Source: Cetorhinus maximus
Lineage: Eukaryota
Direction: 5' to 3'
Assembly (NCBI RefSeq): GCF_964194155.1
Contig: NC_135891.1
Span: 86,986,001 to 87,050,000 of the forward strand
DNA length: 64,000 bases
Under the pieces are notes generated by a model. It was not told the origin of the DNA. It saw only the letters and a program-made list of their open reading frames with translations, and made no database searches. Position numbers and translations under genes: made by a program. Below are positions 2,063 to 64,000 of the stretch, piece by piece (positions within the stretch are counted from its first letter, which is position 1; each line of letters starts with the position of its first letter).

Positions 2063-5000
2063 CTGAAACACAAGAGGATTTCCAATCAAGGCTATTACTC
2101 AAGACAGGTTTTACATTCAAGTTTGATCAACTTCCTTCCACCCTCAATCTGATCTAGGGTTCTCAAATCAAACTGTTTGCATAATGCTTCAGTGCAGAGG
2201 ATCTGGGTGTCCTCGTGCATGAATCGCTGAAAGCTAGTATGCAGGTAATAAAGGAAGGCAAATGGAATTTTGGCATTTATTGCTAAAGAAAGGGAGTATA
2301 AAAATAGGGAAGTGTTATTGCAACTGTACAAGGCATTGGTGAGACCACGCCTGAAGTACTGTGCAGAGTTTTGGTCCCCTTACTGAGGAAGGATGTAGTT
2401 GCACTGGGAGGTGGTCCAGGGGAGGTTCACTAGATTGATTCCAGAGATGTGGGGCTTGTTTTATGAGGAGAGATCGAGCAGTTTAGGCCTATACTCGCTA
2501 GCGTTTAGAAGGTTGAGAGATCTAATTGAGGTATACAAGATGCTAAAGGGGATAGACAAAGTAGACGTGGAGCAGATGTTTCCCCTTCTGGAACATTCTA
2601 GAACGAGAGGCCATAGTTTTAGGCTAATGGGTGGTAGATTTAAAATCAGAGATGAGGAGGAATTACTTTTCTCAAAGAGTCTTGAATCTGTGGAATTCAC
2701 TACCTCAGTGCAGTGGATGCTGGGACGGTGAATAAATTGGAGGAGAGACACAGATTTTTAATTAGTAACGGGCTGAAAGGTTATGGGGAGAGGGCGGGAA
2801 ATTGGAGTTGAGGCTGAAATGAGATCAGCCATGATCGTAATGAATGACAGGGCAGGCTCGAGGGGCTGAATTGCCTACTCCTGCTCCTATTTCGTATGTA
2901 CTTAGTCAAATCTGCATTTACAATGACAACTTCTGAAGCTAGAATTAACCACTGTTGGAACCGTTTAATACTTTTGCAGTCTCAAACCTCCTATACAGGA
3001 GACTGTGCTCCTGGCCATTAAAGGACATTGTGAGGACTAGAGTCACTTATTCCCAAAGTAAGCACTAACTTTCCCAATGCAGAAGTGAATGTAACTGAGC
3101 TTTATAACACCCATTTTCCTTTTGGACAGTTCAGCATTAAACCATTTGACTAGAGCATAGAGTAGGGGGAAAGCAAGAAATGAATAGTTAGTGGGATAAG
3201 TGTTAACAAACGATGTATTGCTTTTTGTTTACAAGTACTGCTTACAAGCCATGTTCTGCACACTAAAGAACTTATTTCTCAAGGGTAGAAGTCTGCAGAA
3301 CATATCTTTAAAATTTCAATGGCATACATGCTCAAGGTTGACAGTATAGAGAATGATCACTGACGTGCAAGATCCAACTTGACCTCTTAAGGTTTATGGC
3401 ATTAAAGCTGATACAAAAACATCCCATTACTAAGGAGGAGGTAGTAAATTAGATCCTCTCTTACCTAGTTCTTCCTCAGTCATTGGAAGATAATGATCAA
3501 CCATCTCTTCAGATTTATTGAGTGCACTGTCCACACCATTGACCACCATCTGCCCTACTCTGGACGCCATGACAGTATTAACTCCTACAACCATCACTGT
3601 CTTGGTTTTTTCAATGCCACCATGCACCACCCCCTTGGCCATGTCCACTACCCCAGTCACTGTATTTTTAGCTCCAGTCACTGTGTTGGAGACTGCATCT
3701 TTGGCTCCTGTTATTGTGGATGAAACCAGTTCTCTGGTATCAGCAACAACCTGTAATTATAAAGGGAAAAGATGACAATTCAGTACATTTTTTTTGTAAT
3801 ACTAGTCAAACCAAACAGTGCAAACATCAGGTTCTGGATGAGCACTTGCATTCTCATTGTCTAGCTCTATAATCCATACAGGAGGCGATTTCAAAAACGT
3901 GCACACAGATGCAGCTGGTGAATCTGTCAAATTGACTTCTACAATTAATTTCCTCCCCACACAAGCCCAGACACTAACAAAATTATGGAATTGTCAGCTA
4001 TTATTTCAATTTGTACAGAATCCAATAGTTACTATTAGGTTGTGTTCAAAAAATTAAGGCAAAGGGAAATTTAAAAGATAGGGCTTTCTAAAAAAAGTAA
4101 TAGTTTGAGACACCATCTAAGCAGGCATTTAAATATGAAGTTACAACTTAGTGGTTTCACTAGCCACTATAGTAAAAGATGGCTTCAGTAGATTGGAAGT
4201 GCAGTGTTCCTATAAACTATTGGTAAATTACAATCCTTTTGAAAGCTAGGTACCATCTGCAGGGTTATTTTATAGATGATTTCCTTACCTGGGGTGTGGA
4301 CTGTTGAAGGATTGGAAGCTTCTCTTCCAGTTTATCCAAGCCTTTACAGGCATATTCATTAGCTGCTGCAACTGAGCACAAAAGAACCTTTGCTTAGAGG
4401 CAAACAATTGTAAATTGTCCACATCGAGCCAATTGGCCCACTCTAGAAGTTTAGCTTTAGACACAAAGTTATTGAAGGGCTGAGAACTTGAGTCTCAGTA
4501 TTTATCTTACACTTTAAATAGTTTAAATAAAAATTGTAGAGATTTTTAACCCTTGTTTGCTTATCAAAAATAGTATTACATGTTCATATTTTACTGTACT
4601 AATCCACAATAGTAAATACCTACAATCACATCAATTACCTCTATTTGCTTTGATAAACATCACACTACTTAAATATGGCTGTAGTGACAAAATGCAAAAG
4701 TAGCCAAATTTGGGAATTAAAATGCAGGCTTCACTCCCAAGTGCATTAGAGCCAAGAGGGCCACAACAACTTCTTGTTGAGCTTAAGTTTTGAGACTATC
4801 CACAGCAAGGGCTGTACTAAGCAAAGCTTAAAGTGCCCAGGATTCTTTTGAATGCTAGCTTTAAATATATAGTACAGGAGTCCCTGCTTATAAACATTCT
4901 CAACTACTAGAAGGGTCTTGTAAAGCAGGAAGGCAGAGCTTCTGAATAAAGCTCAGTTCATTAGTAAGCTACTGGTAATGCACAAGAACTCTGTAGCTTT

Positions 5001-7257
5001 TATTTACCATTTTTGAAACTGAACCTTCAATATGAAAATCTGTCAGTTTGTACCTTCTAGAGATTGAGAAAATAACTTCCCACTTTTCCTTTATGATGCA
5101 ATAATGCCTAGTGTTTAGCAGCAGATATGATATGCTACTTTAGTATTCTTGGCAGAAGAACAAAAATAGTCACTTGTAATATAGGGAAATACAGCAATAA
5201 ACCTGTATAAAGTCCCAAGGTGACTAAATCTGTTTAGCGATGTTAGTTGAGGGATAACTACTGGGCATCTTGCTTTTAAAAAAATCTTTTACAGCCACCC
5301 AATAGGTCTGGGTCCTCAGATTAATGCTTTCATCTGAAAGTTAGGGATGCATACCTGAACATGCCTTCATTTCAATCTTCTGAAGGGCAGGTAGAATACA
5401 ATATAAAACAATTGCTTCAGGGCAGACTTCAGATCAGAGCAGAATTCACACATGAATTCTTAATCCTCTACTTGGGTGGAGCCATGTGACAGTTAGAAAT
5501 TGTAGCTTAATTATACTTGGCAACTAATTGATTCTTTGCCTGATCTCGAAAAACTTTAAAAATGATTTTGCACTTATTTAGGAGAATTCTAGTTCCTTTT
5601 AATTATCACCAGGCACCAAGCTTACATTTCAGAAAAAAGGTTCCTTGTGTCCAGGGGGTCCCAAAGCAAAATATTCAATTATTTTATTCTTAATGAACAG
5701 GCACCATTAAGGCAAATTTTAGCCTTTAAATTTCAGGCAACTAAAATACTGTATGCTCCAATCTTACTTTGAGGCTCCAGCTTGTCTATAATTGGCTTGG
5801 CACCACTGACAGCCACAGCTGAGATGGTCTTCACTCCCTGCTCAGCAACATCACAGACAGTCTTCACATATGGATGGTTCTCCTTGGTGCTGTTGTATGC
5901 AGCTGATACCATGTCATAGGCAGAGCTCACTAGAAGCAGGTTGGTCACCCTGTCCACCACATTCTGAAACAAGTCATGGAATCACCAGATCATTGCACAG
6001 TAATTCATTCCAATGAGGCAAGGGACAAAAGAAACTGCCCAGTACAGTTCTAGAAAGAATAGCTGGACTTTTATAGCAACTTCCCATACCCAGTGTAAGG
6101 AAATGCTTACAAAATAGAAAAGATTGCACAATCATCCTAAAAGATTATGCAAGGATTTTAGTATATCAATTTGTACATTTAGTGAGCATCTCAGATACTT
6201 TGTCTAGTTCAGCATAGTTCTACCTATAATTTACAGCAACCACTTTAGGTACTGTTCAGTATCTCTTGTTAGACCAGACAAGAAATAGAAGTTACAATAT
6301 GGAAACTAGCCATTCAGCCCTACTACTTTGGGTTAGTTCAGGCAGAAAAAGGGTTAATGACCTCAAAACATCAAATTTTTAAAATCTCTCACCACAGGTG
6401 CTGCCAGACATACTGAGCATTTCCAGCAATAAGCTTCGAGATTTCATTATGGGTCAGTATTTGCCAATTATGAGCAAGTCATCATTCCAATCAAATACCC
6501 TTCCTGTTTCACATATCTTATCCTGCCCCTATCCTACCCCCATCTAATTTTGATAGGGTGTAGCTTCTGTCTAGAGCTGCAATCCCAAAATGGAACACTA
6601 GACAACATCAGCTTCTCTCATCCGTCCGTTTTGAATTATTAACAGTTACAACAATAAATAACCTTAATAAAAAAAAATAGTTCTTTTGGCTTCATTGAAG
6701 CGCAAGGAATAAACAAAAAAATGATAAAGAACTGAACAGTTGGGAGAGGGCCAAGTGTTTTGGTGAATCGAGTTTTGGGGGGGGGGGGGGGGTGGAAAGA
6801 GGCCCCTTTTAAATGAACATTAAATTATAAATGCGCTGCTGCTTAGTTTTTAAAAAAATATATTAGTTTGCCTTTTACAATAGAAGCTCTTAGACGAATT
6901 TTGCAGCTATTTCAAGGCAATGAAAGTTAAGTTTGTTGCAAATTAGGCCAAAGGTCACAATACCGAGTGCTTGAGTCGATGAGTAATATTTCCCATCAGA
7001 ACAGAAAGTAACTCCCCGACCGCAGGCCCTAAACTCGTGCTAAACAGGTCATCATCTTACACTGTACAATGGGAGGATTTCTCAATAGATTGCGGTAGTT
7101 AGTAACTATAGAGTATTAGTTATCAAGTTAGAAAGCTAGAAACACACCCATCCACACTTGCTGCCACAGGGAGTAGTTAAAGTACCTGTTGTTCCCCGTT
7201 CTCCTGGTGCTCCGGTGGGTTGGAGACCGCAACATTTTCGGCTACTTCCGACGCCAT
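1875..7257 (-). CDS. PLIN3: Perilipin-2/3-like gene A (partial; exons 7-8 lie left of the window). Coding exons 7186-7257, 5768-5963, 4289-4371, 3465-3750, 1875-2062
   Basis: Spliced translation [24 protein letters not shown]|[32 protein letters not shown]...KLEPQ|[28 protein letters not shown]|[11 protein letters not shown]...[10 protein letters not shown]|[12 protein letters not shown]...[12 protein letters not shown]...NTMDL. Canonical GT-AG sites, consistent phases, exon sizes 72/196/83/286/188. Residues are mixed PLIN2/PLIN3-like, so the symbol is tentative. Confidence 0.92.
2180..2900 (+). mobile_element. CR1 LINE 3' fragment
   Basis: [10 protein letters not shown]...LGLYSL...[15 protein letters not shown], followed by a CR1 3' UTR. 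Confidence 0.88.
3465..3750 (-). CDS. Gene A exon 5 (11-mer amphipathic repeats)
   Basis: 286 nt, [27 protein letters not shown] repeats. Confidence 0.93.
4289..4371 (-). CDS. Gene A exon 4 (PAT domain, second part)
   Basis: 83 nt, [28 protein letters not shown]. Confidence 0.92.
5768..5963 (-). CDS. Gene A exon 3 (PAT domain)
   Basis: 196 nt, NVVDRV...KLEPQ, cag|...|gtaag. Confidence 0.93.
6945..6957 (+). promoter_or_regulatory. DR1 / PPAR response element-like site in gene A intron 2
   Basis: aatt-AGGCCA-A-AGGTCA. Confidence 0.55.
7186..7257 (-). CDS. Gene A exon 2 (start exon)
   Basis: ATG at 7257; donor CAG|gtact; acceptor at 7274-7275. Confidence 0.85.
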
Positions 7258-7613
7258 AACAAATCGACCAAGTCTGGTGGAAAGAAATTAGGAATAAAAA
7301 TCAGCTAGTTTAACTCTCACAGGCTGATATCCAGGGCCGCCGAGGCTGGGATAATGCCCGAGTAAGAGAGACCAAGGACAGATTCTGAACAACTTTTACA
7401 GTAACGAGTTCATTGACCAGCTTATTAAAAGTTGGGCGGAATCCCAGAAACCCTTCAGTAGAAAGTTTAAAAGTCTGCCTGTGCCAAAACACACCAGAGA
7501 AGATCCTTACAACAGTGGAGGTTACTTTGAAACACTTTCGAACAAAAACGCATCAGAAACCTACTAAATAAAATAATCAAAGTTTTGGAAAATAGGCAAA
7601 AAGTTTAATCTTA

Positions 7614-7935
7614 ACTTACCAACTCCGCTCAAAACCTTACACTACTCTTTACACCCTCTACAGTTTAGTTCCTAGTACGGAGTGGTAAATTCTAAAACCC
7701 TTATGACGCTATCCGGGTGGGGCACACTAAATGCTTGTCAAAAGGTCTGAGCAATCAACATGGAAAGAATGAAATTGATTTAGGCATGGACAAATCAAAG
7801 ACTTCAGAGGCGGAGTTTGGTTCATTTCAGTCATGTCAAGGGCTGAACCGAATCTGGATGTGACTGGAGTGCGGGGTGAGGGCGGGGCGGGGCGAGGTTA
7901 CTTCATATGACCTTGGAAGAGTTTGATTGGTGAAA
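7614..7935 (-). promoter_or_regulatory. Gene A non-coding exon 1 and promoter
   Basis: Donor gtaagt at 7614-7619; tandem GC boxes at about 7879-7894; CCAAT on the minus strand at 7926-7930; alignable to the gene C promoter. Confidence 0.6.
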
Positions 7936-10335
7936 TATTGTAGGTACGCAAAATATTAAAGTAATACTAAACAGTAATGTTTTTATCAGCTGACTACAAG
8001 TGAGATCACAAGATAATAATGGACCAAAGAAGACTATTTGACTCAGTTCACTCATTCAGCCTGTCCTTAATCGGCACCATCCAATTGGTTCTTAAAATAT
8101 TCACAGAATCACAGAGTGCTGAAAAGGCCCTTCGGCCCATCGAGTCTGCACCGACACGTGAGAAACACCTGACCTACCTAATCCCATTTACCAGCACTTG
8201 GCCCTTGAATGTTATGACGTGCCAAGTGCTCATCCAGGTACTTTTTAAAGGATGTGAGGCAACCCGCCTCCACCACCCTCCCAGGCAGTGCATTCCAGAC
8301 CGTCACCACCCTCTGGGTAAAAAGGTTTTCCCTCACATCCCCCCTAAACCTCCTGCCCCTCACCTTGAACTTATGTCCCCTTGCGACTGACCCTTCAACT
8401 AAGGGGAACAGCTGCTCCCTATCCACCCTGTCCATGCCCCACGTAATCTTGTACACATCGATCAGGTCACCCCTCAGTCTTCTCTGCTCCAACGAAAACA
8501 ACCTAAGTCTATCCAACCTCTCTTCATAACTTAAATGTTTCATCCCAGGCAACATCCTGGTGAATCTCCTCTGCACCCCCTCCAGTGCAATCACATCCTT
8601 CCTATAATTTGGCGACCAGAACTGCACATTGTATTCCAGCTGTGGCCTCACCAAGGCTCTATACAACTCCAACATGACCTCCCTACTTTTGTAATCAATG
8701 CCTCGATTGATAAAGGCAAGTGTCCCATATGCCTTTTTCACCACCCCACTAACATGCCCCGCCACCTTCAGAGATCTATGGACACACACGCCAAGGTCCC
8801 TTTGTTCCTCAGAACTTCCTAGTGTCATGCCACTCATTGAATACTTCCTTGTCAAATTACTCCTTCCAAAGTCTATCACCTCACACTTTTCAGGGTTAAA
8901 TTCCATCTGCCACTTATCTGCCCATTTGACCATCCCGTCTATATCTTCCTGCAGCCCAAGACACTCAACCTCACTGTTAACCACCCGGCCAATCTTTGTG
9001 TCATCCGCAAACTTACTAATCCTACCACCCACATAGTCATCTATCTTGTTTATATAAATGACAAATAATAGGGGATCGAACACAGATCCCTGTGGTACGC
9101 CACTGGACACTGGCTTCCAGTCACTAAAGCATCCTTCTGTCATCACTATCTGTCTCCTACAACTAAGCCAATTTTGAATCCACCTTATCAAATTACCCTG
9201 TATCCCATGTGCATTTGCCTTCTTTATAGGTCTCCCATGTGGGACCTTGTCAAAGGCTTTGCTGAAATCCATATAAACTACATCAACTACACTACCCTCA
9301 TCTATACACCTGGTCACCTCCTCAAAAGATTCAATCAAATTTGTTAGGTATGACCTCCTTCTGACAAAGCCATGTTGACTATCCCTGATCAAACCTTGCC
9401 TCTCCAAGTGGAGATAGATTCTCTCCTTCAGAACTTTCTCCAATAGTTTCCCTACCACTGACGTGAGACTCACTGGCCTGTAGTTCCCTGGCTTATCTCT
9501 GCAACCCTTCTTAAATAGCAGAACCACATTAGCTATTCTCCATTCTTCTGGCACCTACCCCGTGGCCAGAGAGGAATTAAAAATTTGGGTCAGAGCCCCT
9601 ATGATCTCCTCCCTTGCCTCCCTCAGCAGTCTGGGTCACAAATCATCTGGACCTGGAGATTTGTCCACTTTTAAGCCTGCCAACATCCCCAATACCTTGT
9701 CACTCCCTATATCAATTTGCTCAAGAACTTCGCAGTCTCTCTCCCCGAGTTTGATACCTTCATCCTCATTCTCTTGGGTGAAGACGGATGTGGAGTATTT
9801 GTTCAACGCTCTACTGATGTCCTCTGGCTCCAACCGTAGATTGCTCCCTTGGTCCCTTATGGGCCCTACTCTTTCCCTGGTTATCCTCTTCCCATTGATA
9901 TACCTATAGAATATCTTAGGATTTTCCCTACTTTTACCAGCTAGAGCTTTCTCATATCCCCTCTTTGCTCTCCTAATTGCTTTCTAAAGCTCCACCTTGC
10001 ACTTTCTGTACTCCACTAATTTGCTTCCCTTGTATCTGCTAAAAGCCTCTCTTTTCCTTCTCATCATATCCTGAATATCTCTGGTCATCCATGGTTTTCT
10101 GGGCTTGTTACTCCTTCCTATCACCCTAGAGGGAACATGTTGAGCCTGTACCCTCCCCATTTCCTTTTTGAACGCCCCCCACTGCTCTTCTGTAGATTTC
10201 CCCACAAGTAGCTGTTTCCAGCCTACCTTGGCCAGATCCTGCCTTATTTTACTAAAATCTGCTCTCCCCCAATCCAAAACATTTTTTTGCAACTTGTCTA
10301 TTTCTTTGTCCATAACAAGCTTAAATTGTACCATA

Positions 10336-10626
10336 ATAAAAGCAAAATAATATGGATGCTGGAAATCTAGAACAAAAACAAAAATACCTGGAAAAACTCA
10401 GCAGGTCTGACAGCATCTCCGGAGAGGGATACAGTTGACGTTTTGAGTCTGTATGACCCTTCATCAGAACTAAGAAATATAGAAATGTGATGAAATATAA
10501 GCTGGTAGAAGAGGGTGGGACAGGAGAGCTCAATAGGGGGGGCAGTGATAGGTGGAGGCCAAGAAGAGACTGCCAAAAATGTCATAGACAAAAGCGCAAA
10601 GGGGTGTTGATGGTGGTGATATTCTA
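10336..10626 (-). mobile_element. Penelope-derived terminal-repeat fragment inserted in the CR1
   Basis: Interrupts CR1 ORF2 between SDHN and MVQFK; matches 63075-63365 and 14720-14850. Confidence 0.8.
10433..10471 (-). ncRNA. Minimal hammerhead ribozyme motif (G12 mutated)
   Basis: AGUU-CUGAUGA-A-GGGUC auaca GACUC-AAAA-CG-UC-AACU. Confidence 0.5.
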
Positions 10627-13149: not shown

Positions 13150-14020
13150 TTGAGTTGAGGAACAGAAAAGGAACACTTACATCGTTGAGAAGTTTTTTTA
13201 TAGAACTCCCAAACAGTGAGAAAGAGATCAATGCGCAAATTTGTCAATAAACTTCAAAGGCATGTGTTAAAAATTAGATTAGTAATATTAGGAAGCTTTA
13301 ATTTCCCTATATGGACTGGGAAAAACATAGCACTAAGATTAAGGAAGGAGAGGAAATTCTGATTTGTGTACAGATGAACTTTCTCTAAATCAATTTACCT
13401 CCAATCCAACAAGGAAGAAAGCAGTAAAATAAAAGCAAAATATTGTGGATGTTGGAAATCTGAAATAAAAACGGAGCTCTGAAGAAGAGTCATATGGACG
13501 CAAAATGTTAACTCTGTTTCTCTCTCTACAGATGCTGCCAGACCTGCTGAGTTTTTCTAGCATTTTCTGTTTTTATTATGAAAGGAAGCAGTGTTGAATC
13601 TGGTTCTGGGAAATGAAGTAGAGAAATTGGAATATGTTGGAAAGTGTACTGTTGTATGTTACAGCAGGAGATCACCTAGCTAACAATAACCATAACATAA
13701 TTCAGGTTAAAGTCAAAACAGAAAGAAGCCAGAAAATATTGAAGGTAAAAATGTTCAAGAGGGGAATAACTAACTTAAAGAAGGCTCCTAATAAGGTAGA
13801 TTAGAAAAGGTGATTGCAGGATAAAGCAATAATGAAGTAAAGGGCTTTCAGGGAAGAGATGGTTTGGGTACAAACTAGGTATACCCCTCAGAAGGGAAAA
13901 GGTAAAGTGTCCCTAGATGTAAAGGAAATTAAAGATAAAACAGAAGAAGGAAATTTAAGACAAAAGTCTGGAGTAAGATTCAATTAATAACCTGGAACAT
14001 TACAGAAAGTACAAGAGGGC
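13150..14020 (+). mobile_element. Highly decayed CR1 endonuclease region (continues 16895-18600), with a Penelope-type repeat at about 13428-13578
   Basis: Remnants of YR.P, G.FNFP..DW, LNLVLGNE and DH.II motifs; the later part has RT-like and 3' CR1 motifs. Confidence 0.6.
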
Positions 14021-14083: not shown

Positions 14084-14855
14084 TATATAGGTCTCCTCTA
14101 CATTGGAGAGACCAAACGCAAACTGGGCGACCGTTTTGCGGAACACCTGCGGTCTGTCCGCAAGAAAGACCCAAACCTCCCTGTCGCTTGCCATTTTAAC
14201 ACTCCACCCTGTTCTCTTGCCCACATGTCTGTCCTTGGCTTGCTGCATTGTTCCAGTGAAGCCCAACGCAAACTGGAGGAACAGCACCTCATCTTCCGAC
14301 TAGGCACTTTACAGCCTTCTGGGCTGAATATTGAATTCAACAACTTTAGATCTTAAACTCCCCCTCCCCCCATCCCCACCCCGTTTCTTCACCCCCCCCC
14401 TTTTTTTTCAATAATTTATATAGATTCTTCTTTCCCCACCTATTTCCATTATTTTTAAATCTAAACTAAAACCTTGTTAGTCTTTCCACCCCACCCCCAC
14501 TAGAGCTGTACTTTGAATATCCTGTCTTCCATTCTTAATTAGCACTTTTCTCAGACAAATGTCACCACCTTCGACGCCTCTTTGACCCTTTTGTCTGTGA
14601 CATCTTTTGATTATCTGCTCATCTCCACAATCATCACACCCTCAATGTGTCTCTCCACACCCCCCCCCCCCACCCACCCCCCCACCTTAAACCAATTATT
14701 ATTTCTCCCTTCTTCTAACTATGCTTCAGTTCTGCCGAAGGGCCATGAAGGCTCGAAACGTTAACTGATTTCTTCTCCGCCGATGCTGCCAGACCTGCTG
14801 AGTTTTTCCAGGTAATTCTGTTTTTGTTTTGGATTTCCAGCATCCGCAGTAGCTT
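14084..14855 (+). mobile_element. Penelope-like element 3' fragment (GIY-YIG endonuclease C-terminus, 3' UTR and terminal repeat)
   Basis: LLYIGETKRKLGDRFAEH...VACHFN...RKLEEQHLIFRLGTLQPSGLNIEF*. Confidence 0.88.
14726..14768 (+). ncRNA. Minimal hammerhead ribozyme motif (variant core)
   Basis: UCAGUU-CUGCCGA-A-GGGCC augaa GGCUC-GAAA-CG-UU-AACUGA; perfect 6-bp stem I. Confidence 0.5.
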
Positions 14856-15245
14856 TTAGCTTTTTGTTTTTAGAATTCTTTAAGCCCACCTTCAAGTTTG
14901 GTCAGTGGACACTCCTTGACAATGTGAGTCATTGTTTGGACTGCACCACAGCTGCAGCTTGGTTGGTCTTGGTGACCCCAGTGATATTAGGTGGCTGCAC
15001 AGAGGCCTTGGCCAGCCTGGTAATGGTTTAAAAGGGCCAATTGTTGACATGGGAGATCAAAGCTGGTTGGATGAGCTGTGGGGTCTATGATGAGAGAATG
15101 GTTTCTGGTGGATGTTTTCTCCTGCCAATCCTCCTGTCATAGGTCCTCAGCTGTTACTCAGCATGGTGGACTTAACCATATTGGGTGCCATGAGGGAAGG
15201 TGTATTGTTGGTGGGTTGAGGAGGTCATTGAATAAGGGCAGGTGT

Positions 15246-25875: not shown

Positions 25876-26182
25876 AAATGCTGGAAAAACTCAACATTAC
25901 CATTCCCTTTGCCTTGCCTTAAATGACATCCTTGTCATTTAATCTTTCCCACCCTCTAACCTATCCCTGACCTCTTTTGCTCCACTTGCCCTTCCCCACT
26001 TTGTCAACAGCATAAAACCCATCATATTCCTCCTTCTCTTCAGTTCTGAAGAAGAGTCATATTGGACTCGAAACTTTAATTCTGCTTCTCTATCCACAGA
26101 TGCTGCCAGACCTGCTGCGTTTTTCCAGCACTTTGTTTTTATTTCAGATCTCCAGCATCTGCAGTATTTTACCTTTATTATA
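25876..26182 (+). mobile_element. Penelope-derived terminal repeat
   Basis: Same family as 14600-14855 and 63075-63400. Confidence 0.75.
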
Positions 26183-54500: not shown

Positions 54501-57500
54501 AAAATAGTGATGTCACCAATAGACAAACTTTTAATGACAGTATGGCTCCTGAGGTTTGCCCATGGTGGATACTAGGTGAGTTGGTAGAGGATGAAGGGCA
54601 AAGGGTGGTGGATGGGGCATGTGTGGCACCAAGTAGCCACAGGGACTATAAAGGACATGGGGGTTCAGTGGGGCATGGTAGAGGGGGATGTATGGGAGGG
54701 CTTTTGTTTAAATCCATTTTTAAAAAAAACCCTGGATATAGTGCTGTGCAGAGAGGCAGGCCTACTGCCTAGCCCACCTCCACACCTGGCAGCCTCTGCT
54801 GTTCTGGGGCAGGGGCCTAGCTTCTAATCCAGCCCACCCTGACCCAGTCCAACCTTCCAGGCCAGGTTTGCAGAGCTGGGAAATGTCCTGTCTCTGCACT
54901 CCTCAGTTGGGAGCACAAATCTGGGTCTCAATCTTTGCATGGGATTTGAACCCACAAACTGACAAGAGGTAAGATGGCTACCAATTGAGTTGCGATGGCT
55001 TCCTAATCCACATAGCAGGATACCTCAGTTTTTGAAGTAAGTATGCATTCACATGAACTGATGAATGGTTGATCTGATCTAGTCACGCCACTTTAGGTTG
55101 TCTGAATTACAACAAGATTTTTAGGCAGATAGTGACCAGTGGACAACTACCATAAGGTGGATATAACAAATTGAAACACTTAAATCAGTTAAGAAAAACT
55201 GAGTCATTAGGGAAAGGACTCAATATATCAAGTTAACTACAAGGAGGAAAGAAGAAATTGAAAGATGGGGCCATAATTTAGTTCAGCACATCCAGAACAG
55301 ATGTTATCCCTGACTGGTAAGACCAATCAAACAGAAATGTAAATATGGAGTTAGAACTTGCAACTTAGTGGCTAAGTGAGACTCCATTGGATTGGAAGTG
55401 CAGTGTCCTTATAGCCATAGTACATTAGATCTGAAGAGAAAAAATATGCAGAGCTATGGGGAATGGGACTGGAGTTCCTCCTGCAGACACTGGCATGGAT
55501 ATGACAGTACTTGGCCATCAATAATTGTTAAAGCACAGAAGGCCTCTCCGATGGTGGCATAGTGGTAATGTCACTGAACTAATAATCCAGAGGCCCAGGC
55601 TAATGCCTTGAGTACATGGGTTCAAATCCTACTACAGCAACCAGTGGAATTTAAATTCAATTAACAATTTCTAGAATATCATTGATTGTAAAAACCCATT
55701 TGTTTCACTAATGCTCTTTAGGGAAGGAAATCAGCCATCCTTACCTGGTTGACTTTTAACCACATTCTAAAATGGCCTAGCAAACCATTCAGTTCAAGGG
55801 CAATTAGGGCTTATTCATTCAAGAATGATGGAAGCAGGATTTGTTTCACCCCCCCCCCCCCCCTCAACCTCCCACCAAGGCCAGGTCATTTTGAATTATT
55901 TCCTTACCTGGGGTGTGGACTGTTGAAGGATTGGAAGCTTCTCTTCCAGTTTATCCAAGCCTTTACAGGCATATTCATTAGCTGCTGCAACTGAGCACAA
56001 AAGAACCTTTGCTTAGAGGCAAGTAAGCATTAAAGTGCCCACATTATCCAATTCTAGAATGAGCCAATAGCTTCTGCCAAAAATAGTTACTGAAGGACTG
56101 AACTTGGCAGAGTGCCTTATTTTATACTTGTGCTCAAGCTTTAGTTTTAAACAAATTGTATTCATGAAGCTTTAGCAGAATATTGAAAAGAGATCTTATA
56201 ATAGTTGCATTTACTCCATATTAAAACATGCAATAGTTAACACCCATATGACAGTAGTAATGACAGTGCTATTTGTTTTGTCTTTCTAGACAGAAAGTCA
56301 GAAGATTGGAAGCTATAGCCTGAATTTTTATATAGGTCAGATATAATCACTACTAATATTTTGGAAATAGTTCACATTTAGTAGGCTGCTGGCCAATATT
56401 GAATTAAATCACATACCAATTTTAGTCACAATGACTAATCTGGACCCAGGCCAGATTATGTTGTAATTAATACTGCAGTTGACAAAGTAATCATGCTTAT
56501 GCATTGTAACATTAAAATGCAAGCAGAACTGATACTCTTTAGAGAGTGGCTCACACCTGATGAGATATGGCAACAACCAAATGCTTTGCATATGGCAAGA
56601 GCTTCCCAAACAATGAGATAATGGGCCACAAGGGATTTAAGAGCAAGAGTAGGCCATGTTCCTAAATGGGCAGATGATTTGTGACATTAGTTGAGGGCTA
56701 GATGTTAACCAAGACATCTCCTGCATTTTCCTCACCCTCAATAGCGAGGAGGAATATCTTTAGCCACACAAACGGGGCAGATAGAGCCTCTCTGCAGCAT
56801 TCCCTCAGTATGGTATTGAAGTTGCAGCCTAGATTATGTGCTCAAATCTCTGGATTTCAACTTCCAACCCTCCTCACCACCCCCCTCACTCGTTGAGTGA
56901 GCTGGATACACTCACCCTCTTAATGGGGTGCTAAAGCTACACTTTAAAAACTCAATGATAGTTGACTATGAAGTGATTTTTAATCTACAAGTCACCAATT
57001 TGAGTGAACCAAGTACTGTATGCTCCAATCTTACTTTGAGGCTCCAGCTGGTCTATAATTGGCTTGGCACCACTGGCAGCCACAGCTGAGATGGTCTTCA
57101 CTCCCTGCTCAGCAACATCACAGACAGTCTTCACATATGGATGGTTCTCCTTGGTGCTGTTGTACATAGCTGATACCATGTCATAGACAGAGCTCACAAG
57201 AGGCAGGCTGGTCACCCTGTCCACCACATTCTGAAACACAAGTCATGGAATCACTAGATCATTGCACAGTAATTCATTCCAATGATGCAAGGGACAAAAA
57301 GAAACATGCTTCTCAGCACTAAGGTTGCCAATTATGGCTGGACAGATTCTGACAGACACTCCACAACCTCCTACCTTCATCTACCCCTTGCCATTAGTTT
57401 CAGCCAGGTCAAGAGCAGAGCCCAGGGATGCCCTACTCCCCCAGGCCCCCTTCCAGGCAGAGCCCCTCTTCCACCTCCCATTCCACTCGGAATTGGCAGC

Positions 57501-60500
57501 CTCCTGTAGAACTAACCCCACAGCACTGTGCTCCCCACCTGTACTTCACCTCAAATGCTGTGGCCAGCAAGGAGACCCACAACAATCCCAAGGTTCTAGA
57601 GAATGCAGTGGCCTCAACCTGGCTGTGGGGGCCACCATCTTTACTAGAAGTAAAACTAGTGCTCTTCAAATGTCCAGGGGCCATCAACAGCCACTCCCAC
57701 CCAACACCAGGCAAAAAAGTTTCAGCTGCCTGCCACCCCCATCCACTATACATAAACAGGTCAAATCTCCTGGATTACTGTCAATGGATGCAGATTCCAG
57801 TAAACTCCCAGCTAATCCAGCAAGATTGGCAATACTCAGTATAGTGCCAGTGGACATCAAGGTACAGTTCTAGAGTACAGTTGGACTTTTATAGCAATCT
57901 CCCATATTGTGCAATGAAATACTTTTGACATTAAAGATTGAGCAACTATCATAAAGATAAGTCAGCCCAGATAGGCAATATGAAACCCACCCCACTAGTT
58001 TTCAGGGGAATAATGTTAGACACCACATCTCAAAAACAGTTATACCCATTTAAATGCTATCAAGAGTGATCATTAGCATCTCTTATGGACCACAAGTTGC
58101 TACTTTTATCCATCTGTTTAAGTAACCCTAGGCCAGCTAGCCCGATAGAAGTGAAATCCCCTCAGAACCCAAAAAGGTACTGCCTGTTCAATCTGATTTC
58201 ACCATGAACTGAAAAGGCAATTGAAAGGATTTTTAAAGGTTTTTAAACCTCAGAAAAAGGCAGCTGACACATTGTGAATGCTTAGGTTTATGTGGACAGA
58301 TGCTGGAAGAACAAGACACCAAAACAGTACACGCAAAGGTAAAGTTTTTGTCTCTACCCAAATAAACTGGCAGCTACAAAGCTGTGAACATTTCATGCAC
58401 TAAAGTACATTTGGGGAAATCTACCTACTTTTCTATTCCTCTAGGTATAAACACCAGTTCTTGCTTTGCACACTTATGATTGTTTTTTTTGGCAATTTCT
58501 CATCTTCCACAACTAATACTTAGTAAGCACCTTAACTTGATGAAACATCAAGGTGCTTCAGAGGAACTTAACACAAAATATGATACCAAATCACACAAGG
58601 TGTGAATGGGCCAGGTGACCAAAAGCTTGGTCAAAGAGGCAAGTATTAAGGAGTGTGTCTTAAGAAGCAACAGACAGAGGTATAGGGAGGGAATGCCAGA
58701 GTCAGGACAGAGACAACTGAAGGTACAGCTACCAATGGTGGAGCAACTAAAATTGGGGATGGGACCAGAATTAGATGAATGCAGATATCTGGGAGGGTTG
58801 TGGTACTGGAAGAGATCACAGAAATAGGGAATAAATCTGCTCCAAACTCATTTATCATCAATGGCCTTTTTATTCCTGCTCCCAAAGGGAGCCTCCACAA
58901 CTTTGCTCCATAATGGCACTTGCTTTTCTCTTTCTACTCAGCTTGGTCTTCCTGTATTTTGGTGTGATCCTTCACATTAGCTACATATCTCAGTTTGGCC
59001 TGAATTGCCATTTGATGCCATACCTCTAAATTAGATAAATAATTTGGAGTATGATATCCCAATAGGACATTTCTCACTTTGCCAATCAACTTCACATCTC
59101 AGCCATGTCATCACTCTCCTTATAATCCATTTGCTCATCAGGCACCTCATAGTTTGACTTTGTCTCCCCTTATCCCCAGCCTTCTAAACTACCTGCCAAA
59201 GCTCCAGACTCAGCAGAGGAAGAGCCTGACTTGCTCATGTGCTCCTCACCACAAGTTCTGGCAACTGTTTACACAGTTACCACTTCATTTCAGAATGAAG
59301 CCTTCAGGTAACTCAGCCCTGCCATAATACCTCCCCAAACCCTTCCTCTCACTTGAAAAGCTCAAGTCATGACAGGACAGGAGGTGACTTGGCCCACAGA
59401 ATCCATGCCAGCTCCGTAGGACAATCCAGTCAGTCCCATTCTCCTGCTTTATCTCCACAGTCCTGCAGGTTTCCCCCCCACCCTTCAGTTTCCTTCTGAG
59501 AATATTGATTGTATCCACTTCCAACATTCTCATAGGCAGAAAGTTTCAGGTCATTGCCATCTGCTGCATGAAAAATTTCTTCCTCATATCCCTCCCCTAC
59601 TACCCCCACCAAACCAGCTCTTGCTCAAACCCTTTAACCTGTGTCCTGTTTTTGCACCATGAACAATGGGACACCTTGGGGTCACTTATCCAAAGTTCCC
59701 ATAATTTTGCACACTCCTAGCAAATCTCCCCAGCTGCTCAAAAATAACTTTGTAGCTAAATTCCAGCTGTAACTTCCTCAGAGTGACAATCAGTGTCAGC
59801 TTGCTACTGTGCCCACTTACCTATACTAATTTCTTCCATGCCTATCTCACCCAACCTTCCAACTCAGGCTGGGCAAGATGTAGGCATCACAGCTGTCTCC
59901 AAATCCAACAAATTGGAGGATATCCCTTTTATAGCACTAAGGTCCCATTGAAATTGGCAGGCCAGGGAGAGGGCAAGTGAAAACGACTTGGGGGGGGGAG
60001 GGGCACAGCAAGCTAGATATCAGGAGGGACTGGAACTTTGGGGCATGTCCAGGGGAGAAAGAGTCCCCTTTGGAGGGGGATAAAGTCAGTCTGGTCTTTA
60101 CAATAGTTACCCAGAAGTTAGCAGTTTAAATTCTAACTTTTCCCAGATAACTATAGATAAAACCCTGGCAGAACCATCCAAAACTTGCAATTTAAACTAC
60201 ATTTGCAGATGGTTCCCAGCACAGCGCAATTGTCCACAGGAAGTGCACATTTCTAGGCAATTGCTATGCAAACCCTTACCTGGGAACTCCCCAGCACATC
60301 TTTGGAGTTACAAAATCCAACACTAGGGAGCTCAGAGGTTAACAACCCTCCATCACCCTGGAGCCATTCTGATTCACATCCTTCCTAAAAGTGTGGTGGC
60401 CAGAACGGGATGCAATTCTCTCATTGTGGCCTGACCAGAACATAATAGGTTCAGTATAGCTTCTCCATTTTGTATTCAATACATCGATTAATGAAGCTCA

Positions 60501-61082
60501 AGATCCCATATACTTTGCTAATTATTCTTTCAATGTTTTGCTAACGTCAGAAATCCACGCACATGAGCCATCAGCGTCCATTTTTCTGAATCACTAGAGA
60601 GGTCCTGCAATACGTGAGAATTGCAACTCCCAATAATGGTGGGGGAGGCTGGGCTATGAAAGAGAAAGTGAGCGGAAGGGCTTATTAATAAAGGACCAAA
60701 AAGACATTAACGGCAAGATTCTAAACTTGCTGCTTAGATCCTTAAAAAAATAGCTTTAACGATGAAGCTGATCGCCGATGTACACAGTGCAAATGTTGCA
60801 ACTTTATATACTTAAGATAATGAATTCGGTCAAAGGTCGCAATAAGTTATTGAATCAGTGACCAACATTTCCCAGTAGGACTGAGTCTAAACTCGTCTCA
60901 GCTGGATTTTTATCTTAATGCGAGTGTTTCCCGCATTAGTAACTAGTCTATAGGTTACCAAGTTAGAAACACCCATCCACACTTGCTGCCACAGGGAGTA
61001 GTTAAAGTACCTGTTGTTCCCCGTTCTCCTGGTGCTCTGGTGGGTTGGAGAACGCAACATTTTCGGCTACTTCCGACGCCAT
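45157..61082 (-). CDS. PLIN3: Perilipin-2/3-like gene C (complete, about 452 aa). Coding exons 61011-61082, 57035-57230, 55908-55990, 53352-53637, 50404-50591, 46588-46725, 45157-45552
   Basis: Seven phase-compatible GT-AG exons (72+196+83+286+188+138+396 = 1359 nt) encoding PAT domain, 11-mer repeats and four-helix bundle ending [31 protein letters not shown] and KPEQLES resemble PLIN3, other motifs resemble PLIN2, so the symbol is tentative. Confidence 0.95.
46588..46725 (-). CDS. Gene C exon 7
   Basis: 138 nt, [25 protein letters not shown]...KPE. Confidence 0.92.
47071..47584 (+). repeat. Local duplicate of 43321-43865 (Gypsy LTR portion plus unique flank)
   Basis: Direct alignment over about 520 bp including non-LTR flank. 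Confidence 0.85.
47900..49900 (-). mobile_element. Highly decayed CR1 including ORF1 remnants
   Basis: VACSSC...HMCRQCLQL zinc finger at about 49750-49830, VVHVGTN esterase motif at about 49300, RT and 3' remnants at 48000-48850. Confidence 0.6.
50404..50591 (-). CDS. Gene C exon 6
   Basis: 188 nt, [22 protein letters not shown]. Confidence 0.93.
52834..53240 (+). repeat. 407-bp copy of 54064-54474 flanked by a 23-bp direct repeat
   Basis: aacttcactgctcagttaaaggt at 52811-52833 and 53241-53263. Confidence 0.9.
53352..53637 (-). CDS. Gene C exon 5
   Basis: 286 nt, 11-mer repeats. Confidence 0.94.
55550..55815 (+). mobile_element. HE1-type elasmobranch tRNA-SINE
   Basis: A box ggtggcatagtggt, B box ggttcaaatcc, body ctttagggaaggaaatc..ccatccttacctgg, tail aagggcaattaggg. 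Confidence 0.75.
55908..55990 (-). CDS. Gene C exon 4
   Basis: 83 nt, identical to gene A exon 4. Confidence 0.93.
57035..57230 (-). CDS. Gene C exon 3 (PAT)
   Basis: 196 nt, [14 protein letters not shown]...LEPQ. Confidence 0.94.
57321..57836. mobile_element. hAT (Blackjack-like) MITE
   Basis: TIR-like aggttgccaa / ttggcaatact; absent at the paralogous position in gene A intron 2 (about 6030-6045). Confidence 0.55.
59360..60570 (-). mobile_element. Decayed CR1 3' end interrupted by an unclassified element
   Basis: CR1 3' motifs at 59360-59750 and 60340-60560. Confidence 0.55.
60827..60839 (+). promoter_or_regulatory. DR1-like site in gene C intron 2 (paralogous to 6945-6957)
   Basis: aatt-CGGTCA-A-AGGTCG at the homologous intronic position. 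Confidence 0.45.
61011..61082 (-). CDS. Gene C exon 2 (start exon)
   Basis: [24 protein letters not shown]|gtact. Confidence 0.87.
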
Positions 61083-61387
61083 AACAAATCGACCAAGTCT
61101 GGTGGAAAGAAATTAGGAATAAAAATCAGCTAGTTTAACTCTCACAGGCTGATATCCAGGGCCACCGAGGCTGGGATAGTGACCGAGTAAAGTCACTTTC
61201 CACTGAATAAAGACAGCAACTGGGGCAGTCAGAGCAACTTTTACACTAACGAGTTTAGGAAATCCCACAATAAAAAGTTTAAATGTATGTCTGTAGAAGG
61301 CAAAATACACCAGAACTGAACAATAAAAGTTCCGTCGAACATTTTAGAAGAAAAATACGACAAACTTACAAAGCAAATAGTTTCTAA

Positions 61388-61640
61388 ACTTACAAAGTTG
61401 CCTTAAAGACGTACGCTGTTCTGAATTCTCTACGCAATTTAGCCACTAGGGCACAGCAATGAATTTAAATAGCTATCCGACATTGTCAGGGCGGGGCACA
61501 ATTTATGAATGACAATGAATATGACCAATCCACACTGAAAGAGTGAAATTTAATGAGGCACCGACCAATCAAAGAGTACAGAGGCGTGTCTTTGATTTGT
61601 GTCAATATGGGCTGAGCGCAAACCAGAAGTGACAGATTGT
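61388..61640 (-). promoter_or_regulatory. Gene C non-coding exon 1 and promoter
   Basis: Donor gtaagt 61388-61393; TATTTAAA-like motif about 61464-61471; GC box about 61489-61496; CCAAT at 61525 and 61565. Confidence 0.65.
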
Positions 61641-61829
61641 GGGGGAATGGCTTCGAGTTACCCTGGAAGACATTGGCAGATACGATGGACACGAAAAAAG
61701 ACTGTAGTGTAACAGAACATCAATCTTTTAGCACCTTCTATAGAACACAAGAAATGGGAGCAAGAGTAGACCATATGGCCTGTCAATCCTGCTCTGTCAT
61801 TCAATGCCAGCATGGCTGATCTTGGGATT

Positions 61830-63072
61830 TGTAGTAATTGTGGGTTTTATTTGGTGTGTAATGTACCATTAGGAATAATACTTGTTAAGGAAGATCACAT
61901 AGTCTGTAGTAACCAATAGTAGAGTAGCGTGGGTGACCTCAGCAGTCAGTGTAGAGTTGGAGTTGAAAGCACACACGTAGTTGCTGCTGAGTACATTGTA
62001 AATAAACGTAATGTTTCCACCCAAGAAGTGGCTGCAGATCAACTCTATCATTAATAGTACAACTCAGCCCCCTACAACAAAGTTGCGATGAGGAGAAAAT
62101 AAGATTGAACAGTAGAAATCAGGTTAAGAAGAAATTGGCACTGCACCTCACCCAGTGATTGTAAGTAACAAGCTCCGTTAAAATTGAAGAAGTTATCCAC
62201 TCTCAAAGTGCCACAATTTGGGAGAATTGATCCTTTTGAACCAGCCACAGACGACTGATCTCAATGCATAGAATGCCTACATTCTTTTTTCAAGTGAATG
62301 AGATTATGGGGAAGGGAAGTGATGAGCGATCCTCTTGAGTACTTGTGGGAGCAAACCCTACAGTCTGATTGGAAGTTTGATGGCACCCAATGCCCCAGAT
62401 TTGAAAAATTTTGATGAATTGGTGGACTTCATGAAGGGTCATTTCCAACCCAAGCCCTCAGTCACGATGCAGGGGTTCAGGTTTAATTCGCAAAATGGAG
62501 CCCTGTGTGAGACAATTGCACACTACATGGCAAATTTGAAGCAGCTAACAGAACATTGCGAGTTCATTACGACTCTGAATGACATGTTCAGAGATCGCTT
62601 AGTGTGTGGTGTGAAAGAGGACTCTATTCAGAAAAGATTATTGTCCGAAATGAATCTGGGTTTCAAGAAGGCGCTAAAGATAATGCTGGCCATGAAAAGC
62701 ACAGTAAAAGATTCACAAGCAATAGAGGGTGCGTAAAATGGTGCTGTCCTCCACATTGGGCGGGAAACCTCAGCAGAAAGTGGCACAAAAAAGTGAAACT
62801 CTGCTGAGAAGCAGGAAACATCCCCCGCTAACCGAAGAATAAAGAAAAATAACTTAGCAGCGAAATCGAAGAATAATTTTAGTAGAGGTGGAAACAATCA
62901 GTCTTTTAGCGATTGGCAGTTTAAAAATCGAATGCTACTGTTGTCATAGAAATGAACATATGATGAGGCAGTACAAGGAAAGATTCAACCAGGCTTGTAA
63001 ACAAAATAAGACGCCCAATGAAATCTACAATGTAGAAGAGCCTGAAACAACAAATTCAGACATTTACTCACT
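61830..63072 (+). mobile_element. Second Ty3/Gypsy (Mag-like) copy: 5' LTR, PBS and gag, cut by a Penelope insertion
   Basis: LTR 61830-62079 (TG...CA); PBS-like gttgcgatgagga; gag LKQLTEHCEF..TLNDMFRDRLVCGV and CYCCHRNEH knuckle. Confidence 0.88.
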
Positions 63073-63074
63073 AA

Positions 63075-64000
63075 GGTAAAAGCAAAATACTGCGGATGCT
63101 GGAAATCTGAAACAAAAACAAAAATTGTTGGAAAAACTCAGCAGGTCTGACAGCATCTGTGGTGAGAAAGACAGAGTTAACGTTTCGAGTCTGTGTGACT
63201 CTTCTTCAGAAGTAAAGAGAAGTAAAAATGTGGTGAAATATATACTGTTTAAGGGGGGTGGGACAGGTGAAGGTGGATAAAAGGCCAGTGATAGGTGGAG
63301 GCAAAGGAGAGATTGCAAAAGATGTCATAAACAAAAGGTCGAAGGGGTGTTGATGGTGGTGATACTGGCTAAAGGAGGTGCTAAAGGTGACATTAAGAGT
63401 AGAAAGCAGGATGAGCAAGTGACAGATGGCCCTTGTGGGGCTGGGGTCGGGGGAGGGGATGGTGCGGGAGAAAAGATCGAAATAGGCTAAAAGGTGGGGA
63501 TAAATTAATGAATTTTTAATAATAATAATAATAGAAATAGGTGGGAAACGTATATATATATAAAATATGTAAAAATTAAAACATAAATATATGAAAAAAG
63601 GGGATCAAAAAGGGGTGAGGATGGAGGAGAGACTTCATGATCTGAAGTTGTTGAACTCAATGTTAAGTCCGGAAGGCTGTAAAGTGCCTAATCGGAAGAT
63701 GAGGTGCTGTTCCTCCAATTTGCGTTGGGCTTCACTGGAACAATGCAGCAGGCCAAGGACAGACATGTGGGCAAGAGAGCAGCGTTCCTTTCAAGTGAAG
63801 CAGCATTTCACTTGCACTTCCTCAATTTGGTCTACTGCGTTCGCTGCTCCCAATGCGGTCTCCTCTACATTGGAGAGACCAAACGCAGACTGGGTAACTG
63901 CTTTGCGGAACACCTTCGGTCTGTCCGCAAGCATGACCCAGGCCTTCTTGTTGCTTGCCATTTCAACACACCACCCTGCTCTCATGCCCACACGTCCGTC
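63075..64000. mobile_element. Penelope-like element with inverted arrangement (minus terminal repeat and GIY-YIG end, then plus GIY-YIG)
   Basis: 63640-63782 is the reverse complement of the GIY-YIG C-terminus; 63786-64000 encodes C.SSNLVYC..CSQCGLLYIGETKRRLG. Confidence 0.88.
63175..63213 (-). ncRNA. Minimal hammerhead ribozyme motif in the Penelope terminal repeat
   Basis: actt-CUGAAGA-A-GAGUC acaca GACUC-GAAA-CG-UU-aact. Confidence 0.6.

Follow-up and report, generated by a model that had tools for sequence, protein, structure and literature searches.

The window analysed here is a 64,000-nucleotide stretch of the genome of the shark Cetorhinus maximus (assembly GCF_964194155.1, contig NC_135891.1), and its right-hand end is occupied by an inverted insertion of a Penelope-like element (PLE). 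The first arm, on the minus strand at 63077–63785, is 5′-truncated and contains, in element order, the C-terminus of the endonuclease, the 3′ untranslated region, a hammerhead motif and the start of the next unit. The GIY-YIG endonuclease coding end lies at 63635–63785 (stop codon at 63637–63635), where tblastn with the intact 917-aa family protein gives 85% identity across residues 859–917. The second arm starts at 63786 on the plus strand, carries the GIY-YIG motif with one frameshift, and extends ~660 nt beyond the window's last position at 64000; in our locus L037 it occupies positions 1287–2161. It too is 5′-truncated, and since the two arms are only 90.7% identical the insertion appears to be old. 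The arms can be aligned with each other only from L037:608 (window 63107), and the ~30 nt at 63077–63106 (minus), absent from the inverted arm, constitute a ‘tail’ in the sense used for PLE copies (PMC8557442, PMC11167929). Similarity breaks off close to 63077, to within a few bases, in all 30 best-matching loci. At 62150–63076 (plus) the insertion disrupts a decayed ORF, which we take to be a gag-like frame of an LTR retroelement. At the far side, the end of the second arm (L037:2150–2161) matches the reverse complement of window 63040–63051, ~27 nt from the first junction, which hints at microhomology at priming. More decayed copies of the same repeat occur in the window at 6387, 10337–10621, 11161, 13430–13577 and 25959–26177.

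The hammerhead motif is read on the minus strand from 63213 to 63175, and 102 nt separate it from the 3′ end of the element. The 5′ strand of stem I (ACUU, 63213–63210) is followed by the core CUGAAGA (C3 to A9, 63209–63203), one extra A (63202), and stem II, whose 5 bp enclose a 5-nt loop (63201–63187, with 63201–63197 paired to 63191–63187); G63201–C63187 is the 10.1–11.1 pair, and A63202 the unpaired base that separates positions 9 and 10.1. The segment that begins with G12 (63186–63179) comprises GAAA (63186–63183, ending at A15.1), CG (63182–63181), U16.1 (63180) and U17 (63179), and thus holds the palindrome ACGU at 63183–63180 and a GUU triplet without any stem III loop. The 3′ strand of stem I (AACU) occupies 63178–63175, and the predicted cut falls between 63179 and 63178. 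On re-reading we recovered every part of the core that the preliminary description had listed, namely the full core, 5-bp stem II, extra A, palindromic ACGU and GUU, and the extra A and GUU triplet, both singled out there, are ordinary among PLE hammerheads. Its report of one mismatch in stem I is accurate for the window copy, in which C63212 faces C63176 and leaves three of four pairs, two of them contiguous, but not as the family state: in a set of 49 window-lineage copies, selected in part because they resemble the window, 41 have G at this position, the window's C at 2.3 is common to seven, and a perfect 4-bp stem I is the majority form.

How distinctive the motif is depends on how it is described. 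The loose pattern CTGANGA..GAAA is weak alone, with 11 matches in the window against a shuffle mean of 6.1 and at least 11 matches in 5 of 100 shuffles. A full descriptor consisting of the core, a perfect stem II, the palindrome, UH and at least three of four stem I pairs matched the window once, at 63213–63175, and matched none of 100 shuffles of the window. Over 580 kb it gave 2 strict-core and 7 relaxed-core matches, and none in 10 shuffles, indicating that most family ends have decayed. An Rfam search of 56000–64000 at E≤10 returned eight matches with no hammerhead among them, a silence that would be expected for a motif without loop III. The near-chance frequency of the loose pattern and the Rfam result are what a fortuitous resemblance within a repeat would produce, but such a coincidence has a negligible claim on the data, given the empty shuffles, a position and polarity matching those in other PLEs, and the covariation described below.

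The motif follows the PLE minimal type I core (C3 U4 G5 A6 N7 G8 A9 ... G12 A13 A14 A15.1–U16.1 H17) and has the bulged nucleotide, the G10.1–C11.1 pair, the palindromic 15.2–16.2 and the short stem I of that class; the stable stem III, loop I/II tertiary contact and Rfam score of a canonical full hammerhead are lacking. The minimal hammerheads of metazoan PLE pLTRs (PMC4209133) likewise have CUGANGA plus an extra nucleotide, G10.1–C11.1, a short stem I, GAAA, NUH and a palindromic 15.2–16.2 without loop III, with C-G-U-U common in the Fig. S3 list, and they too occur once per pLTR, mostly in 5′-truncated copies and sometimes in opposite-strand pairs. The PLE-associated variants of Lunse, Weinberg and Breaker, which cleave as dimers, share the diminished stem III (review PMC6765202). 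Judged by its sequence, the window motif is a genuine copy of the minimal type I hammerhead known from PLE ends. Activity in this class is modest: minimal PLE hammerheads showed no activity as monomers and low activity as dimers (PMC4209133), and of nine Xenopus dimers eight gave no product and one was cleaved (bioRxiv 10.64898/2026.07.22.740005). The earlier proposition that the loopless palindrome pairs only between two copies draws on structural reasoning in this literature; here the second copy lies on the opposite strand.

The preliminary description had taken the repeat around the motif for a PLE terminal repeat, and the surrounding sequence agrees, with a GIY-YIG C-terminus upstream and full copies encoding reverse transcriptase (RT) and endonuclease between two motifs. 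Full-length units are ~3.3 kb long and have one motif per end on the coding strand. At locus L126 two motifs on one strand are separated by 3,335 nt and accompanied by an inverted copy, and L195 (5140–8465) holds an uninterrupted 917-aa ORF between two motifs with C at core position 6 (C6) 3,291 nt apart, with an inverted copy upstream; this intact ORF marks the family as recently active. The protein has YIDD at residue 562, a C-x4-C-xx-C linker at 783 and YIGET at 833, and Pfam detects RVT_1 (E 2e-6) and GIY-YIG (E 4.5e-4), both just below the curated cut-offs. Its best-ranked match with a source name is an uncharacterised protein of Chiloscyllium punctatum (69% identity), consistent with an elasmobranch host. 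The single ORF with RT preceding GIY-YIG, the tandem pLTRs, the inverted 5′-truncated copy and the optional tail are all features of endonuclease-positive (EN+) PLEs, and those of the Neptune/Nematis type share with this element the C-terminal position of GIY-YIG behind RT, a CX2-5CxxC linker, tandem pLTRs, an inverted 5′-truncated copy and a tail of 30–40 nt (PMC8557442). Because the C-x4-C-xx-C linker fits CX2-5CxxC, we assign the element to the Neptune/Nematis type and not to Penelope/Poseidon, a placement made by linker motif.

The long ORF of the family begins 153 nt past the cut. An ATG 23 nt past the cut was considered as its start and rejected, as an in-frame stop comes next in four translated full-length copies of the window's lineage. 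Copies terminate at one of two fixed positions, which lie ~70 and ~102 nt beyond the predicted cut. In the Anolis Poseidon element PAc, the motif is also situated at the pLTR–ORF junction, RT starts internally, downstream of the hammerhead, and two such start sites give an optional tail; PAc is, however, a member of the Penelope/Poseidon clade with an ORF that begins at stem II, whereas the shark element has the Neptune/Nematis-type linker and the 153-nt interval (PMC11167929). Animal non-LTR retrozymes contain type I hammerheads related to PLE ends (PMC7229834; bioRxiv 10.64898/2026.07.22.740005) and are reported from one chondrichthyan genome with a mean consensus of 363 bp (bioRxiv 10.64898/2026.07.22.740005). 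A retrozyme is a short non-coding tandem with two same-strand hammerheads; the window copy, an inverted fragment of a coding element, is not one.

The repeat is as common as initially supposed: scaled to the 3.99-Gb genome, our counts correspond to ~3–4 × 10^5 family ends. An anchor placed downstream, clear of the motif, had 45 matches in 58 evenly spread 10-kb stretches, and five lineage references found 92 matches in 98 random 10-kb stretches; about seven of these 92 matches have starts at +28 or beyond and may be artefacts of self-complementarity. Intact motifs form a minority. Nine of the 49 window-lineage copies are fully intact, and exact genome counts gave 2,716 for the window-type motif and 10,188 for any core with A at position 6 (A6) under a degenerate pattern, with 0 for the reversed-pattern control in each case. 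Copy number in the shark family is far above the 4,000–9,000 given for coelacanth and Xenopus (PMC4209133). None of the 56 motifs in the Fig. S3 list of that publication is chondrichthyan, and all have A6, which its descriptor required, whereas intact shark copies mostly have U6 or C6. Of the earlier statement that the class is known and the family perhaps uncharacterised, the first half stands, the class having been described in 2014; for the second, no description of a shark PLE hammerhead or of a U6/C6 PLE core was found in the literature surveyed, where the Lunse set and the supplements of the 2026 preprint may hold some. The motif adds a cartilaginous-fish family to this class.

We examined conservation of the fold in 15 hand-picked examples from five lineages, relatives that are not independent of one another. 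Of 135 cells, 95.6% were paired, compared with 12–44% in slid-register controls on the same copies; structure is conserved across lineages. Two of the five stem II pairs changed on both sides among these examples, a count that taken alone was reached by 195 of 500 shuffles. Read from the alignment, stem II co-varies between lineages, through few independent lineage-level events. At one stem II pair the 36,451 genomic motifs with U6 or C6 have C-G in 10,173 cases and a C-A mismatch in 326. The columns GAAACGT were invariant in 15/15 examples and, position 6 aside, the core, palindrome, UH and stem I were fixed in all 15 from the oldest lineage to the youngest, with only one-sided changes in stem I; copies with stem I disrupted are found repeatedly. 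Divergence in the window lineage was lower in the core than in the flank (14/488 vs 189/3,310 non-CpG cells), a comparison we did not use as evidence because resemblance to the window had guided the choice of 30 source loci and markers of sub-lineages lie in the flank.

At the window locus itself, the circumstances are unfavourable. Folded alone, the motif forms only stem II (−6.3 kcal/mol); the minimum of a two-copy co-fold (−21.1) is a non-hammerhead pairing, and the dimer with stem II and paired ACGU reaches −15.7 with stem I left out. The inverted arms supply one sense motif per transcript, the motif of the second arm (L037:2059–2093) has G for A9 and hence a damaged core, and RNA folding predicts 88% of the whole insertion to be paired, with the motif inside a long helix. 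Because its stem I is weakened by the C-C mismatch and it has no same-strand partner, the opposite-strand partner being damaged, the window copy is likely an inert passenger or relic. Were it instead active here, pairing in trans with another copy so as to cut transcripts of the host or of repeats, one could point to its being the sole strict-core descriptor match in the window and to the abundance of family sequence in assembled contigs of runs presumed to be RNA, contigs that show neither ends nor strand. We find such activity highly improbable: two contiguous stem I pairs remain, the trans helix would be only 4 bp, the inverted arm is predicted to sequester the motif, and the site sits in an apparently old insertion inside a decayed ORF of presumed LTR-element origin.

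The window copy has A6, and the most abundant intact motifs of the genome do not. With comparable exact patterns, intact-stem motifs with U6 or C6 number 36,451 against 10,188 with A6, an excess that in part reflects youth, exact patterns favouring young copies. To our knowledge, more than 36,000 intact copies would make these the most abundant natural core-variant hammerheads. U6 and C6 mark the youngest lineages, and L195, the copy with the intact ORF, is C6. The window also contains a young sister-lineage copy at 14090–14864 (plus), with a CUGCCGA (A6C) core at about 14732–14738; its protein is 100% identical to that of the intact ORF over 88 aa, and window 14690–14864 has 32 further full or partial matches, mostly 95–100% identical. 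In a midpoint-rooted tree of 25 endonuclease ends (180 columns; good support for 3 of 22 branches), C6 copies are nested within a U6/C6 clade (99/96), A6 copies fall outside it on longer end branches, and one U6 copy also lies outside. When the U6/C6 copy L105 served as query, a DNA search returned nothing, a silence that is not to be read as absence.

Changes at position 6 are accompanied by a difference in the flank. The four bases ending at 2.4 match loop II with four pairs in 48 of 77 U6/C6 copies and in 2 of 39 A6 copies, the 116 copies with a stem II representing few lineages. We hypothesize that flank and loop II may pair in U6/C6 copies. Several U6 loops break the match, and in C6 copies the same flank bases could instead lengthen stem I to 6 bp. 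Examples are found at L061:2715–2757 (minus) and L161:1537–1579 (plus), and there is one apparent double change between lineages. In two other hammerheads, A6C strongly lowers cleavage in Mg2+ and spares cleavage in Mn2+ (PMC7151607, PMC3088659). The hammerhead of phage Bcep176 has the same A6C change as the youngest sister lineages; it is a rare single case in a full hammerhead, whereas the shark motif is minimal, mass-amplified and includes A6U as well (PMC3088659, PMC7151607). A tentative reading, which we hold to be possible though the less probable one, is that core position 6 passed from A through U to C in the most recently active lineages, while stem II was repaired by compensatory change, stem I lengthened from its 4 bp to 6 and the flank–loop II match was gained, giving slow ribozymes dependent on this brace or on protein that would let RT read uncut RNA. 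If so, a graded A6/U6/C6 series within one genome makes the role of PLE hammerheads directly testable. That the youngest lineages have lost A6 could mean that catalysis has ceased to matter.

A genomic trace of cutting was sought in the positions at which copies start. In the youngest (C6) lineage, with the test restricted to copies that depart from the element at each of the three letters upstream, we counted 23 starts at the cut (+1), 17 at +4, 1 at −4, 36 at −8 and 107 at −35, with pools and letter filters that differ between patterns and a larger pool for −35. Nine of the 23 cut-site starts are explained equally by stem I microhomology, one is an internal deletion and three are a single duplicated insertion, leaving ten. 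A genomic footprint of cleavage was consequently rejected for this lineage, there being no peak of copy starts at the cut. In the random sample, with fuzzy alignment ends and old lineages that may be mis-referenced, 33 of 92 copies have starts 26–40 nt upstream of the cut, as against 2 of 92 with starts within −5 to +4; 8 of 12 copies of one young lineage likewise start 26–40 nt upstream. Since few copies start at the cut and many upstream of it, templates were mostly uncut and likely began at the edge of stem I. The triplicated insertion that starts at the predicted cut (L216, L217 and L218, on contig C24) has a flank that we presume to be 18S rDNA from its resemblance. The PAc hammerhead of Anolis needs protein for cleavage, insertion in vitro can do without it, and no RNA-seq ends are reported at its site (PMC11167929).

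Taken together, these data make it probable, in our judgement, that the motif belongs to an abundant Neptune/Nematis-type PLE terminal repeat and would cut tandem transcripts only slowly, with the help of a second copy and probably of the element's protein, and that the window copy is likely inert. Transcription would start ~35 nt upstream of the cut, at the edge of stem I. In a full-length element the second copy would close stem III, probably assisted by the element's own protein. RT would start inside the RNA downstream of the motif and read through it, in which case RNA that was uncut (or circular after re-ligation) gave rise to ORF-bearing copies such as that in the window. Trimming or circularisation of multimeric RNA by cutting would then happen late or occasionally, after reverse transcription or apart from it. 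A different account, in which the fold is kept for a non-catalytic job (a binding site for the PLE protein, a promoter or an RNA 5′-end signal) and the chemistry is vestigial, draws strength from the replacement of A6, a letter whose change sharply reduces Mg2+ cleavage elsewhere (PMC7151607, PMC3088659), in most intact copies and in L195, from the lack of excess starts at the cut in the C6 lineage, from the recurrence of broken stem I, and from Naiad PLEs, which thrive without canonical hammerheads (PMC8557442). It is nevertheless unlikely in our view, in that every other core position, the palindrome, UH and stem I are fixed across the 15 lineage examples, natural A6C hammerheads keep low or Mn2+-dependent activity (PMC7151607, PMC3088659), and the related Anolis motif cleaves with protein (PMC11167929). 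Slow catalysis on tandem transcripts remains the preferred interpretation. Dated copies in the hundreds of thousands preserve a record of where the RNA template and RT started, and the natural A6/U6/C6 series, with its intact-ORF member, offers matched substrates for asking whether PLE hammerheads need cutting; the value lies in this series, and less in the window copy.

Several further observations concern sequences around family ends. Several pyrimidine tracts with AG motifs occur at window 63077–63230 (minus), one of which, in majority copies, has its end at the edge of stem I, and another of which has a branch-point-like word across the cut site; no clear splice joints that would support a splice-acceptor role for these tracts were found in assembled contigs. 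A 550-aa open frame directly follows a PLE end at L194:5350–7002, and presumably encodes a NACHT/NLR-type protein. Short fold-back insertions with two inverted ends starting at or near the 5′ edge of the motif are present at L111, L112, L124, L165, L183, L189, L239 and L250. Finally, same-strand C6 motifs lie 69 nt apart at G000:C1:8366838–8366941 and 88 nt apart at C1:19877359–19877481, pairs that by their arrangement are candidate retrozyme-like short tandems and putative natural dimer substrates.
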